Shown one piece after another: positions 2,545 to 12,442 of a stretch of 20,019 nt of DNA (position 1 is its first letter; each line of letters begins with the position of its first letter). Below the pieces are notes generated by a model that searched no databases, had not been told where the DNA came from, and was given only the letters and a program-made list of their open reading frames with translations. The stretch lies in UHGV virus genome UHGV-1706396; one strand, written 5' to 3'. The stretch comes from a virus. The position numbers and the translations under genes were made by a program.

Positions 2545-3453
2545 ATGATTGGTAAGTTGTCTGATTCTTTGATTGAAAATAAATACAACGAATTTAGAGA
2601 AGAAATATCTTTACTTTTTGACTATTTAAATCAGATAAATGATACAACAAAGAAAAATATAAAACGTCTTCTAAAAGAAGTGGAGTATGCACAGAATCCA
2701 GATACTATTATTAATATTAATGAAACTATTAAGATTAAGTGTGGCACAACGTTAGCTCGCCATTTATGTTCAAACCCATATACAGGTTCAACATTAGAGA
2801 TAGGTAACAGCGCCATTGATTTAGAAGAAAAGATAAGATTGTGTAATGTTTTGAAGAATAAACAATATCAGTGGGTTATTACTGAAGCCTATGAGTTACT
2901 GGAAGACTATATTGAGGCAATATATGTCTATACTGTATGTGTTCGAAATGATTTCTGGTCCTCAAGTAATTTTGGTAAGGTTGAAGATGATGACATTGGG
3001 AAAGGGGAAGTTTATTACAAATTATTAAAAGCAAAAAGTAACCCATCGAAAAAAATAATTAAAATTTTCAGAAATAAAATACCTGGCTTCAAAGAGATAG
3101 AAATAAACAACAAGATTGGTAAAAACTATCGCTTTAACATCAAGCTAATTGAACTACTAAGACATACAATAGTACACAATAGTGGACGATTCAATGATAC
3201 AGAAAAATTTATAAATAAGGTTTTAGATGAATCTGAAATAAACGGTAAGAAAAGAGTTATTGGAGAAAGAGCTGTTAGAAGTTACATTGCTAAAGTGCAA
3301 GAAGATGATATTGTAATGCTCTTAGAAAGACCATCTGAAATTTTTGGTTCTTTTGGTGGTTATTTTAACAGAGCAAAATTTTTACTAAGTGATATTTTAG
3401 AATACTCACTAATCATTAAAGAAGAACTAAAATCATATCTAGGCAATCATTAA
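2545..3453 (+). CDS. AT-rich accessory protein of unknown function with HEPN-like Rx4H motif; candidate abortive-infection / defence protein
   Basis: 302-aa ORF, markedly lower GC than its neighbours (K/N/I-rich); GAGG RBS 6 nt upstream; R206-H211 motif RHTIVH (nt 3160-3177) fits the HEPN Rx4-6H consensus with a polar residue after Arg; opposite strand to flanking genes; own terminator. Confidence 0.55.
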   Translation: MIGKLSDSLIENKYNEFREEISLLFDYLNQINDTTKKNIKRLLKEVEYAQNPDTIININETIKIKCGTTLARHLCSNPYTGSTLEIGNSAIDLEEKIRLCNVLKNKQYQWVITEAYELLEDYIEAIYVYTVCVRNDFWSSSNFGKVEDDDIGKGEVYYKLLKAKSNPSKKIIKIFRNKIPGFKEIEINNKIGKNYRFNIKLIELLRHTIVHNSGRFNDTEKFINKVLDESEINGKKRVIGERAVRSYIAKVQEDDIVMLLERPSEIFGSFGGYFNRAKFLLSDILEYSLIIKEELKSYLGNH

Positions 3454-3454
3454 C

Positions 3455-3486
3455 AAAAAAAGGGGCCGAAGCCCCTTTGAATTTTG
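3455..3486. terminator. Bidirectional rho-independent terminator between the AT-rich gene and the tRNA cluster
   Basis: Hairpin AGGGGC-cgaa-GCCCCT (3461-3476) followed by TTTGAATTTTG on the plus strand and by a 7-T run on the minus strand (the A-run at 3454-3460). Confidence 0.75.
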
Positions 3487-3552
3487 CGCTGAAAAAAGTG
3501 TTGCTAGGATGTTAGCAAGCTATGGTTAAGAACGTCTGCCGTAATTGTCTAT

Positions 3553-3630
3553 CACAGCGTTGAGCGGTCTGGTTTATGTTAGCGGAGTCTTAATCTGGGT
3601 GATTAAAAGGCCAAACCGCTCAACGCTGTG
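3553..3630. repeat. Long inverted repeat (20-bp arms, 19/20 complementary, 38-nt loop) immediately 3' of the tRNA cluster
   Basis: CACAGCGTTGAGCGGTCTGG at 3553-3572 and CCAAACCGCTCAACGCTGTG at 3611-3630; arm sequence related to the repeat at 4901-5022. Confidence 0.6.
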
Positions 3631-3632
3631 TC

Positions 3633-3719
3633 TGGCGGAGAGTAATGGAATCGAACCATCATCGCTTGCGCAATGGGACGGTTTTCAAGACCGCTTGAGC
3701 ACCATGCTCCCTACTCTCC
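3633..3719 (-). tRNA. tRNA-Ser (anticodon TGA), class II with long variable arm
   Basis: Hand fold of the minus strand: acceptor GGAGAGT/ACTCTCC, anticodon stem GCGGT/ACCGT with loop CTTGAAA, T-arm GATGG-TTCGATT-CCATT, encoded CCA. D-arm is atypical (short loop or 3-nt linker). Confidence 0.65.
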
Positions 3720-3905
3720 GGCCGTTGTGGTGGCCGGTACTGAATCTCCGGCATACGGTGCAGCCAATTAGGACTACGGACGATCACCGCTCGCGAAAGG
3801 GAAGGTTTGCGGCCGCATTTCCCTAACATCCAAGAAAGCTATCGCATCAGTCTGCGAATCCACCACAACGGAAAGAGCATTCACGTCTCGCGTGCCACCA
3901 CGAAT

Positions 3906-3929
3906 GGCAACTCAGAGAGTCGAACTCTG
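3906..3929 (-). other. tRNA-like 3' fragment (T-arm plus acceptor 3' strand) without a recognisable 5' half; pseudo-tRNA or possible att core
   Basis: Minus strand reads CAGAG-TTCGACT-CTCTG-AGTTGCC with conserved G53, T54 T55 C56, A58, C61, but no D-arm or anticodon arm could be folded upstream. Confidence 0.3.
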
Positions 3930-4387
3930 AAAATGCTCTTACCTGTTGTGTGCTGTGTCACTCCCTCCGCTATTACCTGGCTTTGCCTCGACCTTTTAGG
4001 TTGCGTCCGATGATAAACAGGGCTGTCGGAAATTTGTCTGTGACACAGCGATAAGAGAACTCGATGCATTTAAGCCAAGCCCCATATGGGAAGTTCTCTT
4101 ATCTGTTGTGCGCTCCGTTTCGTGGAGCTAACGGCGGGTGAACAGGCCGCACCAGGTTGGACATATTTCAGCGTTATGCTGTTGCAAGAGAGCCAAATTG
4201 TGATGGTCGGTGCTGAACTCCGACACAGGGTTGTAGCAAGCCCCGCAAAGCGCGCACTACTGTAGTTGCGGCACATCAGCCTGTGCATTCACCACAATGT
4301 TGAGAACACTGGTTGTCACGCTGCAACGCAACATTTATTCATAGATTGGGATATGACCCCGTTACGCCAATGTTCTCAATATTATGT

Positions 4388-4463
4388 TGGTGCCGGTTAA
4401 CGGACTTGAACCGCTGACCATTCGCTTACAAAGCGACTGCTCTACCAACTGAGCTAAACCGGC
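4388..4463 (-). tRNA. tRNA-Thr (anticodon TGT)
   Basis: 76 nt: acceptor GCCGGTT/AACCGGC, D-stem GCTC/GAGC, anticodon loop TTTGTAA (27-43 pair mismatched), T-arm AGCGG-TTCAAGT-CCGTT, encoded CCA. Confidence 0.8.
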
Positions 4464-4467
4464 AATT

Positions 4468-4554
4468 TGGTGGGGAGTGATGGAGTCGAACCACCCGAGT
4501 CGCAATGACAGTAGATTTACAGTCTACCCCGCTACCCCTACGGACTAACTCCCC
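4468..4554 (-). tRNA. tRNA-Tyr (anticodon GTA), long variable arm
   Basis: 87 nt: acceptor GGGGAGT/ACTCCCC, anticodon arm GTAGA-CTGTAAA-TCTAC, T-arm GGTGG-TTCGACT-CCATC, discriminator A, encoded CCA. Confidence 0.85.
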
Positions 4555-4559
4555 TAAAT

Positions 4560-4634
4560 TGGCGATGGTGGGTGGATTCGAACCACCGACCAGTTGGTTA
4601 ACAGCCAACTGCTCTACCGCTGAGCTACACCATC
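4560..4634 (-). tRNA. tRNA-Asn (anticodon GTT)
   Basis: 75 nt canonical cloverleaf: acceptor GATGGTG/CACCATC, D-stem GCTC/GAGC, anticodon arm GTTGG-CTGTTAA-CCAAC, T-arm GGTGG-TTCGAAT-CCACC, encoded CCA. Confidence 0.9.
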
Positions 4635-4825
4635 AATTCGGCACTGCCAGTATTTATTACTCAACAGTGCCAATCGCGACGGTTTAGTTTCTGCCAGGAA
4701 ACGCACCGCTACTTGCACTTTTCGTTAGTGCCAGACGCTTTCGACTTCGCTCAATAGTAGAAGGCAAACTCTTTAAGTAGATGATGTTTCTGAGGACAGC
4801 ACCTACTTTGTAATTTATACAATGT

Positions 4826-6227: not shown

Positions 6228-7546
6228 TCTTTATCTCCGATTCGATCTTCTGTATCGCGTAAGCAACGCGGCCATTTCAGTCGTGGGTGGCGTAAGCTGC
6301 CATCCGGCGTTTTCTCGTGACAATGAACCTCGACAATACGACCACGGTACTTCTCTTTGTTGTTCCAGATCTCGTCCAGATATTTATGCTTAATGCCGCT
6401 TGCACGAACAATCACACCGTTTTCAAGTCGAATAACAATTTTTCCAAGCGTGTTGGCAAAACCAGAGTCCGGGTCGCCCGGCTCAAAGTCGATAATTTCA
6501 CCATCTTCTGAATCTTCGTCTTTTAACTTCCACCAGCTGCGGGTACGTTTAAACTCGTAAACAGAGTTCGGATCTTTGCCCATCTCCCCTTCTTCGTTAT
6601 CGTCCAGGCGTTTCATGAAGCGTTCGATGAAGTCTTCGTGGCTATGGATGATGTAGAACGGATGTAGGTGAATGTCTTGCGCGTAGTCTTCACTGCGATC
6701 GTTTTTGAACAACGCCACGAGAATAGCCAGGCGCTCTTTCAGCTTCATACCTGTCTTTGCATACTCTTTGGATTTAGCCTGTGCCCGCCATTCCGGTAGG
6801 AAGAAGTCGAAAACATGATAAATAGCGCCAATTGCCTGCACGTTCTTTTTGCGCAATGCAGATACGGACTGGTTAAATGAACCGGCTGTTCCTTCACCAT
6901 CGAAGAAGATGTGTTTGTGGCCTGAAAGTTTGCCTAATTCGAGCATGGCTGGCTTTAGGTGATCGAGAGACGTGATTGGATTACCAGTACGAGAAAGGAA
7001 GTTCACCTCTTCCTCGTCAACAATAACCTCGCAAATTACTCGCAAACCATCGAGCTTAAGGCTGCCAATCATCGGCCATTTTGCTTTAGGATTTGGCTTG
7101 AAGGGGTATTTGTCGCCTTTTTCTTTATACGGTGACGCCAGCTGCACCTCGAATTTCGGAATGGGATTTTCAAAAACCTTGTTGCATAGGCTAATCCCAA
7201 CGCCAGCTTTCGGATCTTTTAAGAGGAAACGACGGAACACGTCCTGCCCATCGGCGCACATTGACGCCACGATAGACTCAACAGCAGCTATTGCTGCGTT
7301 CCCCGTCAGCTCGCGAGAGGCCAGCTTATTCAGTATATCAATGGCTTTTTCGTCACTTGGGACGGACTCACTAAGCGGCTCTGCCACTTTGTATTTCTTT
7401 ACCCCAAAACGGATGAAAGGGTTGAGCATCAATGAAACCATGCTTTGCTCGAAGTCATCCATGTTGGCCAATGCCTCTTTTTTTGCATTGGTTCCCATAG
7501 TTTTCATTTCGTCCAGCTTATGCTTAAGTGCGATCAACTTTTTCAT
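6224..7546 (-). CDS. ATP-dependent DNA ligase
   Basis: 440-aa ORF with the adenylation motif K-x-D-G in SLKLDGLRV, characteristic of ATP-dependent ligases. Confidence 0.8.
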   Translation of the reverse strand: MKKLIALKHKLDEMKTMGTNAKKEALANMDDFEQSMVSLMLNPFIRFGVKKYKVAEPLSESVPSDEKAIDILNKLASRELTGNAAIAAVESIVASMCADGQDVFRRFLLKDPKAGVGISLCNKVFENPIPKFEVQLASPYKEKGDKYPFKPNPKAKWPMIGSLKLDGLRVICEVIVDEEEVNFLSRTGNPITSLDHLKPAMLELGKLSGHKHIFFDGEGTAGSFNQSVSALRKKNVQAIGAIYHVFDFFLPEWRAQAKSKEYAKTGMKLKERLAILVALFKNDRSEDYAQDIHLHPFYIIHSHEDFIERFMKRLDDNEEGEMGKDPNSVYEFKRTRSWWKLKDEDSEDGEIIDFEPGDPDSGFANTLGKIVIRLENGVIVRASGIKHKYLDEIWNNKEKYRGRIVEVHCHEKTPDGSLRHPRLKWPRCLRDTEDRIGDKE

Positions 7547-8025
7547 TGTTGTTTTGCCTCCATATGTTGATCGATTTGCTCATGTGTTTCTTTTGTTGTT
7601 TCTTCAAGCAACGCCGCATACACGTCAGTGATCGCTGTTTGTGATGTGGTGCTCTTCTTAACCATGCTATTAATCGTTACACTGTCACGTTTTCGTTTTA
7701 TAGTTCTGGCTTGTTTATTCCGTTCTTCAACCTCCTTAATGAGCGCGGTCATATCTTCGAAATACAGAGATTCTCCTTTACGAATCTCTTCAACCATCAT
7801 TTTTAACGCCTTGCATTTGCCTGCTTTGATAGCGGTTGCGCACGACTGGAATGAAGTTCGAGGAAGACGGTTTTCTTTGAAGGCAAGAATGGTGTGCTGG
7901 CAAACGGAGTAGCTGCAATATGCCGACTCACCGTTTATCTTTACTTCCTCACAACGAAGTGAATAACCATTATTTCCTGAAATAGAGGGGATTTTTGACA
8001 AATCAGCTTTCACAACTACCGCCAT
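7543..8025 (-). CDS. Hypothetical protein, Cys-rich N-terminal region (possible zinc-binding)
   Basis: 160-aa ORF with ATG start; stop overlaps the ligase start (ATGA); cysteines in CEEVKINGESAYCSYSVCQH; no SD, but the GTACTTACCTATC motif lies 10 nt upstream. Confidence 0.5.
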   Translation of the reverse strand: MAVVVKADLSKIPSISGNNGYSLRCEEVKINGESAYCSYSVCQHTILAFKENRLPRTSFQSCATAIKAGKCKALKMMVEEIRKGESLYFEDMTALIKEVEERNKQARTIKRKRDSVTINSMVKKSTTSQTAITDVYAALLEETTKETHEQIDQHMEAKQQ

Positions 8026-8080: not shown

Positions 8081-8863
8081 TTACCAACTTCCCCAGCTAA
8101 CCATCTTGCGCTGATTGCTTTCTAAGCGATAGGGGACAAGAAGCTCTGTGACATGATTGGTGGCGTATGATTTAGCCTCTTGCTCTATCATCGGTAATTC
8201 GTTAGCAATCCTGACCATCTTCCCAGCAAATTCCGCCATTACGCCATCACATGCCTTCCCAGCATCAATAACGATATGCACCAGATCCAACTGGCTTTTG
8301 CACATGTCGCAAAGAGACGCATACTCACTCTCTCTGATTACATTTACGGCATCATTAGCCCCTTTATTAAGCAAGACTTCCAACAGGTTTGTCGGGGTAA
8401 CAAAATCGGCTTTAAGTGACAATGTTCTCTCACCTTTTATCGACCGTAAGTACTCTTCGTAGTTTTGCTTGTCTTCCAGCAAAACTAAGCTATGCATAGT
8501 TAGAAGTGATTCCTGAATAGCCTCTTCAATAATACTGTCGTTTGGCGCACAAAAAACGGTATTTGTGTAGATCACTTTTCCATCCATCCATGCACCAACC
8601 TGCACTTTAAGACTGAGCGGGTTTTCTTTGCTAATAAAAACAACTAATGCAGAACGCCGTGCACAAGAAGGTTCACCCCATACGTGTAACTCAACCTTCA
8701 GATAAGGTAGCCCTGGTAGCGGGATCTCAACCAAACGAGTGGCGATATGATCCATTGCCGTTTTTACCGCTTTTTCAATGATGTCTAGTCGATTGCTCTC
8801 GCTGATTTCTAAACCAGTTTTATCAATGATGTCGCAGGCTAATTTCTGAATTTCGTCTTTCAT
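8081..8863 (-). CDS. Hypothetical protein (260 aa)
   Basis: Long ORF with ATG start and AGGAG RBS 7 nt upstream; no recognisable motifs. Confidence 0.55.
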   Translation of the reverse strand: MKDEIQKLACDIIDKTGLEISESNRLDIIEKAVKTAMDHIATRLVEIPLPGLPYLKVELHVWGEPSCARRSALVVFISKENPLSLKVQVGAWMDGKVIYTNTVFCAPNDSIIEEAIQESLLTMHSLVLLEDKQNYEEYLRSIKGERTLSLKADFVTPTNLLEVLLNKGANDAVNVIRESEYASLCDMCKSQLDLVHIVIDAGKACDGVMAEFAGKMVRIANELPMIEQEAKSYATNHVTELLVPYRLESNQRKMVSWGSW

Positions 8864-11585: not shown

Positions 11586-12326
11586 TTAATTAGATAGGGG
11601 ATCAATAAACCGCCGTGCTTCTTCCAGTTCTTCTGGAAAGTGGGCGGAAATAAGGCGCTCTGGAACTATTTCCATTAGCCAGATAGCGGAGAAAATTGCG
11701 CGTATGCGCTTGCTGCGGGGGATGGTGCGTAAACGCTCCAGAATCCACTCAAAATAGCTTTCCTGGATCGGGTTGAACTGCATGTCTCCCATATGCTTAA
11801 AACTAACCAGAGAGTCATCCAGACGGGTTGTTGCGCGTCTGGCTAATTTCTCTTCAAATATCTCAATCAGTTCTGGCTGCCACAAATGCTGTGGGCGAGG
11901 CAGCTTGTCCCACAGACGTCGTGCAGCTGCGGAAAGCACGGTGGAGATAAAGTAGTCGTATGAGCAGCAATAGCGGTCAGCAAACTGGCGTGCTTTCCAT
12001 AGCGACGTTTTATTGGCAGTCGACAACTCCTGATAAGGCAGGCGTTTTAACCCGGTGGTGAACGGAGCTGTTTCAAAGTGTTCACGACCGTGCGTCAGCA
12101 TGATATTTGAGTACTGACGTTTGTATGCCTCCGTAAACAGACAGGTGGCCATAAGAGGATGCATGTCGCGGTAATCAAACCACTTCGTATCGAAGAGTTC
12201 AGCCTCGTCTTTGCAGCGCGACAAACCAATGTTTTCAGCAACCCACTTATCCATAACAGCGGTATTCCACTCTGTCATGAAGTCGTACTGGTCGTTGTCG
12301 ATGGTGTCGAAAAAGATTTGGCTCAT
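11586..12326 (-). CDS. Hypothetical protein next to the helicase (function unknown; a helicase-loader or initiator role is only speculation)
   Basis: Track ORF begins at a GTG (12335); the ATG at 12326 has an AGGTGA RBS about 7 nt upstream and is preferred. No conserved motifs recognised. Confidence 0.5.
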   Translation of the reverse strand: MSQIFFDTIDNDQYDFMTEWNTAVMDKWVAENIGLSRCKDEAELFDTKWFDYRDMHPLMATCLFTEAYKRQYSNIMLTHGREHFETAPFTTGLKRLPYQELSTANKTSLWKARQFADRYCCSYDYFISTVLSAAARRLWDKLPRPQHLWQPELIEIFEEKLARRATTRLDDSLVSFKHMGDMQFNPIQESYFEWILERLRTIPRSKRIRAIFSAIWLMEIVPERLISAHFPEELEEARRFIDPLSN

Positions 12327-12442
12327 GTGGCTCACCTGGTAGGTAGTTACTTACTTATCACAATGAGCGGATGATAGCGACTGGTGGCAGTTTTTGGAAG
12401 TGGAAACGGAAGGGAGTTGTTCTGGTGGTGTCTTTTAAAAGA

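Follow-up and report, generated by a model that had tools for sequence, protein, structure and literature searches.

What lies between the tRNA-Thr and tRNA-Ser genes of a phage transfer RNA (tRNA) cluster is the question raised by positions 3720–4387 of a 20,019-nt stretch (the window) of virus genome UHGV-1706396, which represents a P1/D6/Cyrano-like Escherichia coli phage-plasmid. A first-pass annotation had described this gap as poor in open reading frames (ORFs), and indeed just overlapping ORFs of 44–93 amino acids (aa) are present there on either strand. It had also offered three explanations for the hairpins in the gap: a decayed tRNA, the core of an integrase attachment (att) site or unannotated structured RNAs. 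The last of these is the one that holds, and the gap very probably consists of conserved structured RNA cassettes. The modules exist, are conserved and folded, are under selection as minus-strand RNA, and move together with tRNAs, small RNAs (sRNAs) and small genes. All are read on the minus strand, where the cluster has the order Asn-Tyr-Thr-(H0-C1-X0-H1-M-H2-C2)-Ser-hairpin-terminator. The gap comprises the following features (z, score of the minimum free energy (MFE) fold relative to shuffled sequences):

4293–4387, minus strand: module H0; z = −5.08; stem UUGAGAACAUUGG/CCAGUGUUCUCAA; begins right after the CCA end of tRNA-Thr
4196–4299, minus strand: module C1; 72.9 bits, E = 5e-15 with covariance model R1
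4112–4195, minus strand: spacer X0; two small covarying hairpins (comparison with loci L005, L006, L012, L174, L213 and L260)
4044–4110, minus strand: module H1; z = −3.85; covariation across the H1 family
3951–4043, minus strand: spacer M, bounded by GUGUCAC...GUGACAC; z = −0.10
3864–3950, minus strand: module H2; z = −3.66; interior a permuted tRNA-like cloverleaf
3723–3870, minus strand: module C2; 69.3 bits, E = 4e-14 with covariance model R1

The gap has a G+C content of 50–54%, compared to 26–45% in its flanks, and its folding z is −3.7 for the minus strand and −1.8 for the plus strand. When single modules were scored, values of −5.1 (4290–4387), −3.9 (4036–4114), −3.7 (3860–3956) and −2.2 (3722–3871) were obtained. 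Over the whole gap, the best-matching sequence is that of plasmid NZ_CP048306.1 (coverage 100%, identity 96.4%).

The C modules share a scaffold consisting of 5′ GUGGUG-AAU-GCGCA-GGCUGA-UGCGC, a variable segment, and AA-GCCGG-AGAUCAGCA-CCGGC-CACCAC, in which the 5′ GUGGUG pairs with the 3′ CACCAC; the size of the modules ranges from about 62 to 220 nt. The first hairpin (5 bp) starts 3 nt after the closing strand, and the second (also 5 bp) is stacked flush on the closing stem. The insert is hypervariable, occupies the place where a tRNA carries its anticodon arm, and extends from 11 nt (in the 62-nt module of locus L099) to more than 150 nt. The layout is thus tRNA-like (closing stem, first and last hairpins, and paired loops instead of the elbow), but tRNA models reject C. 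C1 is composed of the closing stem, hairpin GCACA-GGCUGA-UGUGC, the variable insert, hairpin UCGGA..CCGAC and CAUCAC, and is homologous to a region of P1 (L001:3101–3204) that lies antisense within upl/plp. C2, which tRNA-Ser nearly adjoins, has homologs in Jedunavirus (L004) and P7 (L002:3114–3261). Its 3′ hairpin is the GCCGG-N10-CCGGC structure of the first-pass annotation, which is real but lies at 3733–3752 and not, as had been given, 2 nt away at 3731–3750.

Model R1 was built from a MAFFT alignment of 31 C copies and gave exactly two matches in the window, C1 and C2. The same three helices were obtained with RNAalifold on the unfitted MAFFT alignment. Over 99 matches, 97.3% of the cells are paired and 16 of the 23 pairs vary on both sides; none of 500 shuffles was as good, and slid controls paired 25–41%. 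A further helix, outside the model, is formed by the two hairpin loops, which pair over 5 bp (GCUGA/UCAGC). Compensated variants of it (GCCGA/UCGGC, GUCGA/UCGAC and ACUGA/UCAGU, the last being that of C2) were found in at least seven lineages, and a G·U variant occurs as well. The hammerhead-like motif CUGAUG in the first hairpin was considered and rejected, since this segment covaries as a helix. A conserved element, CCCACUGCCUGGGACCCUUCGGCCAGAGAGCCGACAUUGCCUUACCCUCAUC, was observed 5–60 nt after many of the C modules (loci L009, L043, L048, L068, L072, L080 and L086).

The H modules have a long stem of about 18–20 bp, whose flanks, CACAAC-A-GG-U-AAGAGCA and UGCUCUU-U-CC-GUUGUG, surround variable cargo. 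The consensus over loci is CACAAC-A-GG-U-AAGAGCAUU ... AGUGCUCUU-U-CC-GUUGUG; the stem covaries and the interiors are unrelated. For the 14 nt preceding GUGGUG, a pairing strand located 40–160 nt upstream is present in 63 of 85 distinct C copies. Three kinds of cargo were recognized: (i) a small conserved hairpin (H1), (ii) a permuted tRNA-like cloverleaf (H2) and (iii) a real tRNA in another genome. The 3′ strand of the H0 stem continues into the GUGGUG of C1, and H0-type modules also precede C in P1, L013, L058 and L059.

H1 corresponds to the perfect 12-bp inverted repeat noticed earlier, which was found exactly as described, with GATAAGAGAACT at 4050–4061 and AGTTCTCTTATC at 4092–4103 around CCCATATGGG. 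Its conserved interior, UCCC-AUAU-GGGG-CUUGGCUUAAAUGCA, is invariant across the family as UCCC..GGGGCUUGGCUUAAAUGCA. About 40 distinct members remained after a context filter against chance 15-mer matches, and their stem covaries (0 of 500 shuffles as good). In P7-like phages, the CCA end of tRNA-Thr is often followed immediately by a module of this family. The two X0 hairpins are GCGG..CCGC (GCAG..CUGC in L006) and CUCC-ACGAAAC-GGAG (4113–4127), and the latter also occurs immediately 5′ of H modules in other phages.

The most tRNA-like part of the gap is H2. The T arm and acceptor-like strand reported earlier (CAGAG-TTCGACT-CTCTG-AGTTGCC, 3929→3906 on the minus strand) are present at exactly that position. 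The order of elements in H2 is: closing stem, T arm CAGAG-UUCGACU-CUCUG (3913–3929), the 7-bp hairpin GUUGCCA-UUCG-UGGUGGC, hairpin CACG-CGAGA-CGUG, closing stem. The T arm therefore comes first after the closing stem, and the pairing partner of the acceptor-like strand lies downstream, beyond a UUCG loop; no 5′ acceptor strand, D arm or anticodon arm was found upstream of the T arm. This arrangement is kept with compensatory changes in Agtrevirus (L007; AAGAG/CUCUU, AUG/CAU) and in L009 (AGGG/CCCU), which argues that what had been read as a tRNA 3′ fragment is an integral, selected part of H2 and not debris. An exact-pattern scan of viral contigs for H2-type modules returned one near-identical contig only. 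In Massilia sp. TS11 (L249, approximately 4485–4666), the H slot just before C is occupied by a real tRNA-Gly, with an acceptor stem that the H flanks extend, and a tRNA-Pro follows. The H slot of L118 carries a tRNA-like insert with canonical D and T arms. Since the same slot can hold such sequences, a tRNA ancestry of the H cargo stays plausible. In L260 (3706–3878), it is the variable insert of C itself that contains a tRNA-like cloverleaf.

Base pairing also indicates which strand is under selection. The C helices contain 56 G·U pairs compared to 7 A·C pairs, an excess that points to selection on the minus-strand RNA. tRNA genes within 1 kb of C share its strand in 28 of 171 loci, and in none of the 171 do they have the opposite orientation. 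In every relative recovered from the BLAST matches of the gap, the orientation of the modules is that of local transcription and of the tRNAs. A −10-like hexamer precedes G1 by 7–15 nt in 9 of 29 H-less C copies, compared to 0–2 at control offsets.

The features flanking the gap are:

4560–4634, minus strand: tRNA-Asn (ARAGORN; Rfam tRNA model, 75.5 bits)
4468–4554, minus strand: tRNA-Tyr (ARAGORN; Rfam tRNA model, 41.9 bits)
4388–4463, minus strand: tRNA-Thr (ARAGORN; Rfam tRNA model, 69 bits)
3633–3719, minus strand: tRNA-Ser(UGA) (ARAGORN)
3553–3630, minus strand: H-like long hairpin directly 3′ of tRNA-Ser, CACAGCGUUGAGCGGU...ACCGCUCAACGCUGUG, read from the sequence
3459–3478, minus strand: strong intrinsic terminator, AAAGGGGCUUCGGCCCCUUU + U7 (terminator scan), closing the RNA-gene cluster

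The strong terminator lies about 155 nt downstream of tRNA-Ser, no promoter-like sites were found inside the gap in a minus-strand scan, and the homologous tRNAs of P1 and P7 are part of the C1-controlled ban operon. On this basis, the simplest placement of the gap would be in one transcript with the tRNAs. A weak terminator-like hairpin is also present at 3491–3518, between the H-like hairpin and the strong terminator. A permissive Rfam search lists tRNA-Ser(UGA) (3636–3720, minus strand) as tRNA-Sec, with 46.6 bits compared to a cut-off of 47, a result for which the long variable arm of this tRNA is probably responsible.

The portability of the modules is apparent from their distribution. 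BLAST analysis of the gap gave fragmented matches: P1 shares only 4096–4379, P7 and D6 share other parts, and Cyrano lacks the gap. Single pieces of about 80–150 nt (75–83% identity) were found in unrelated phages, i.e. beside the tRNA cluster in Agtrevirus, downstream of Q in Klebsiella and Cronobacter lambdoid phages, and beside an HNH gene in Jedunavirus. The breakpoints of these matches coincide with junction words present at every module border: CACAAC(A/G)G at the 5′ end, GUUGUGGUG in the middle and CCACCACAAC at the 3′ end. In Cyrano (L003, 3266–3275), just ACACAAUU, a single junction motif, separates tRNA-Thr from tRNA-Ser, and from its sequence this looks like an empty site for H-C cassettes. 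Between the same two tRNAs, one H-C unit is present in L058 and L013, and at least two in the window and P7, which suggests that units come and go at the junction. The shared junction CACAAC/GUUGUGGUG may allow whole units to be gained, lost and swapped among phages.

An exact-word scan with the 5′ part of C identified at least 120 viral contigs, with 100 distinct sequences among the matches listed. One 160-nt C variant has a match in 1,587 of 5,426 complete E. coli genomes (at least 80% of the query being covered in 818), where it is unannotated, lying e.g. between the e14-type repressor gene ymfK and yfdP. P1 contains, besides the C copy at L001:3101–3204, a divergent copy (C′) at 2818–2943, and P7 contains two C copies. 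In Qin, a prophage of E. coli K-12, a C′ (L129:9454–9583; 33.7 bits) fills the spacer between dicF and dicB and ends just before the dicB start codon; a second, weak C′ lies between Q and the lysis genes. The exact 25-mer of C occurs in 51 bacterial species representatives, all of which have the module at full length. Enterobacterales predominate; among the other holders are six Janthinobacterium loci, Massilia, Undibacterium, Xenophilus, Aeromonas and Marinobacterium, as well as metagenome-assembled genomes labeled Moraxellaceae, Lysobacterales and Geobacteraceae. Some C copies are closely followed by the Shine-Dalgarno (SD) sequence and start codon (ATG) of a small gene, and some by an intrinsic terminator. 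Other tRNA-like sequences were seen at some of these loci: ARAGORN made tRNA-??? calls with odd anticodon loops 138–164 nt after C in L271 and L272 (Janthinobacterium), and L270, L274, L280 and L291 contain tRNA-like sequences ending in GCCA.

Comparison with known RNAs did not identify the modules. ARAGORN reported the four flanking tRNAs in the window and none within 3720–4387, so that no complete canonical tRNA is present, and Rfam 15 yielded neither a tRNA nor a credible family in the gap at the gathering threshold or at E ≤ 10. The single weak listing, mir-883 (20.6 bits compared to a cut-off of 85), is noise. C matched no family in the window at either setting or in nine related loci, and the same window and loci contained no covariance-model match to C4 or other Rfam 15 families. 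No transfer-messenger RNA (tmRNA), standard or permuted, was called by ARAGORN in the window; in related loci, the permuted-tmRNA model gave sub-threshold scores (26 bits, cut-off 47) on T-arm-bearing H modules. H2 shares with YrlA, in which a tRNA-like domain sits on a stem, the permuted order of stem, T arm, closed acceptor-like hairpin, D-like hairpin and stem. However, H2 has no match to the YrlA family (RF02553): none was found on H2 or C at E ≤ 10, nor in the nine related loci, and a weak match (15 bits) falls on true tRNAs.

A Ro/Rsr partner for H2 was also sought and rejected, because no TROVE domain was detected by a Pfam scan among ten large ORFs of the window; the domains identified were integrase, ligase, primase, helicase, GIY-YIG and S74 peptidase. 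Four sizeable ORFs without a Pfam match are located at 2545–3453 (plus strand) and at 7543–8025, 8081–8863 and 11586–12335 (minus strand). The one of 302 aa, beside the RNA cluster, lies in a stretch with a G+C content of 26–34%, far below that of the surroundings. Three further candidates were discarded: (i) HK022 put RNA, as a loose regular expression found no C-like scaffold in the right half of HK022 (20,000–40,751); (ii) the M3 RNA of phi80, an RNase P substrate, as M3 is annotated as an oop homolog and R1 finds no C in phi80; and (iii) the Pas sRNAs of pathogenic E. coli, of which the published PasA fragment and probe are unrelated to H and C, the sequence comparison covering PasA alone among PasA–PasD. 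Like the modules, GOLLD and ROOL RNAs and species 1 and 2 of the T4 tRNA cluster are structured non-coding RNAs beside phage tRNA genes, but the gap modules are small, repeated and shuffled, do not form one large RNA, and have no Rfam match. A literature search by scaffold words gave no match, although a description in literature beyond that searched is possible. Compared to known tRNA-like and processing RNAs, the distinctive traits are the Watson-Crick “elbow”, the free cargo and the cassette-like shuffling.

The plus strand of the region has been annotated as protein coding in P1 (NC_005856; L001, 2979–3548), where upl and plp run antisense over H0 and C1, and plp also antisense through trnT. 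The window contains homologous plus-strand ORFs of 59 aa (4086–4265) and 44 aa (4266–4400), the latter a truncated plp. These ORFs and the P1 annotation would favor small proteins, such as Upl and the putative lipoprotein Plp, as the product of the locus. However, substitutions are spread evenly over the codon positions (22/49/46 in upl and 82/101/99 in plp), with no third-position excess; homologs carry indels of 3, 6, 7 and 19 nt, some of them frameshifting; and the P7 annotation has no gene in the homologous region. The upl and plp ORFs are thus most likely annotation artefacts, and a coding explanation of the gap is extremely improbable.

Two other explanations take the T-arm fragment as their starting point. 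If the gap consisted of decayed tRNA genes, its hairpins would be debris of a once larger tRNA cluster, as the T-loop-like sequence and the 7-nt acceptor-like strand may suggest; the tRNA sets differ among relatives, and H slots elsewhere hold real or near-real tRNAs. We consider this very improbable, since neither ARAGORN nor the Rfam tRNA model, even at E ≤ 10, gives a match, the T arm heads a set of three hairpins within a long closing stem and is not the leftover 3′ half of a tRNA, this non-tRNA arrangement is preserved by compensatory changes in distant phages, and the conservation of the C scaffold is far above that expected for a pseudogene. The second proposal is that the fragment is the tRNA-derived core of an integrase att site. 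A tyrosine integrase gene is indeed located at 810–1913, but a search of 5,426 genomes with a 46-nt query around the fragment gave matches to just three E. coli plasmids and to no chromosomal tRNA, and the fragment lies within a folded module that is conserved, which makes this the least probable of the explanations considered.

More serious alternatives concern the level at which the modules act. C and H might be trans-acting effectors, either tRNA mimics serving as decoys or sponges of a conserved host factor (e.g. RNase P, a defence nuclease or a tRNA-binding enzyme) or regulatory sRNAs with the insert as specificity determinant. The 25-nt 5′ scaffold of C is identical from Enterobacterales to Janthinobacterium, Massilia, Aeromonas and further groups while the inserts are unrelated, pointing to a conserved binding partner; some C copies have promoter-like and terminator-like signals of their own, and the T-loop of H2, UUCGA(C/U)U, is invariant. 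On the other hand, antisense matches of the inserts within about 10 kb are no longer than expected from shuffling (8.9 vs 8.9 nt), the 62-nt copy has almost no insert, and many C copies lie in 5′ leaders, directly ahead of SD and ATG; an effector role is therefore judged unlikely. Alternatively, the modules could be DNA-level sites for recombination or homing of tRNA and small-gene cassettes. Short conserved flanks around variable cargo are known from T4-type PeSL cassettes and integron attC sites, and homing-endonuclease targets would be another parallel. As in these systems, the module flanks match mosaic breakpoints (here at CACAAC/GTTGTG junctions) and empty sites exist, such as that of Cyrano with its one junction motif; relatives have 0, 1 or at least 2 units, and one C copy adjoins an HNH endonuclease gene. 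In contrast to them, selection acts here on RNA pairing, with G·U eightfold commoner than A·C in the helices and a covarying loop-loop helix, and the orientation always matches that of neighboring tRNAs. The junction, (G/C)CACAAC ... GTTGTGG, also departs from the attC core (RYYYAAC ... GTTRRRY), with T at R and G at Y, and attC was rejected on this basis. A purely DNA-level explanation is accordingly improbable, although such sites would be compatible with an RNA function alongside.

The whole explanation that we favor, at somewhat better than even confidence, is that the modules are tandem portable non-coding RNA cassettes, co-transcribed with the phage tRNAs, with a role in processing or stabilization. 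Functions of the individual modules are proposed more tentatively and, in our estimate, fall a little short of even: H would provide RNase III stems and C a mimic of the tRNA top half yielding a stable RNA or message. In this model, H stems would be cut by RNase III, freeing the cargo and neighboring RNAs, in the manner of the stems flanking ribosomal RNAs and those of T7 messenger RNA (mRNA). C would be freed by RNase P or begun at its own promoter, and its paired 5′ end would give either a stable RNA or a stabilized 5′ end of the downstream message. Together, H and C would punctuate and stabilize long phage transcripts carrying tRNAs, sRNAs and small genes. Known RNase III stems (16S/23S flanks, T7 early mRNA, the DicF precursor) resemble H in having about two helical turns and internal loops and in flanking a released RNA; the H flanks differ in being conserved, portable and reused around unrelated cargo in many phages.

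That C may be an RNase P substrate is an idea drawn solely from its geometry: the closing stem of 6–8 bp and the flush 5-bp hairpin form a stack of 11–13 bp, capped by the paired loops. The c4 antisense RNA of P1/P7 (RF01695) and the CI RNA of P4 are RNase P substrates of tRNA-like shape within longer operon transcripts. They resemble C in their paired 5′ and 3′ ends and in the hairpin stacked on that stem; C differs from them by its Watson-Crick loop-loop “elbow”, its hypervariable insert, the lack of a detected cis target and the lack of a match to the C4 family.

The K-12 Qin prophage provides the sole experimental anchor for H stems as RNase III sites. An H-type stem (L129:9173–9258; z = −3.1) lies upstream of dicF, and 190 nt counted back from the dicF terminator leads to approximately L129:9246, within the 3′ strand of this stem. 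According to a report on DicF, RNase III generates the 5′ end of a 190-nt DicF precursor (10.1101/2023.04.14.536235), and the placement of that end in the stem would make H stems candidate RNase III sites.

Several points weigh against the reading favored above. The K-12 cut position is calculated from the length of 190 nt given in that report and is not a base read from it. Folded alone, C1 (4196–4300) is not significantly stable (z = −1.4), and neither X0 (z = −0.4) nor M has a significant MFE fold. Uncompensated loop variants occur, i.e. GAUGA/UCAGC in two lineages and GCUUA/UCAGC in one. Members were gathered by exact-word patterns, so that variation of the scaffold is under-sampled, and they are related to each other, so that the shuffle tests treat them as more independent than they are. 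When upl, plp and trnT of P1 were knocked down by CRISPR interference, no plaque defect resulted (PMC10695390). Finally, the 3′ strand of each H shares 3–9 nt with the 5′ strand of the next C; because this middle word can pair upstream (H) or downstream (C), the two stems may stack or may be alternatives that do not coexist.

A broader proposal, which we regard as possible but doubtful, is that C constitutes a new class of tRNA-shaped phage RNA, in which a 5-bp Watson-Crick loop-loop helix would replace the D/T elbow and free cargo, in one case a whole tRNA, would replace the anticodon arm. Its scaffold would be base-conserved across Gamma- and Betaproteobacteria because it fits a universal host machine (such as RNase P or another tRNA-handling enzyme); combined with the H stems, C would make up a cassette system for the exchange of tRNAs, sRNAs and small genes by temperate and virulent phages.

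If the favored reading is true, common enterobacterial prophage and phage-plasmid DNA (P1, P7, K-12 Qin) carries a structured RNA family that has been missed or called protein; one C variant alone is found in about 30% of complete E. coli genomes (15% when at least 80% of the query is required). The minimal 62-nt C fold, tolerating any insert, could serve as an RNA expression scaffold. The modules would also offer a concrete and testable approach to the cutting and stabilization of long phage transcripts in which tRNAs are combined with sRNAs (such as DicF) and small toxic genes (such as dicB), and would bear on the movement of tRNA genes among phages.

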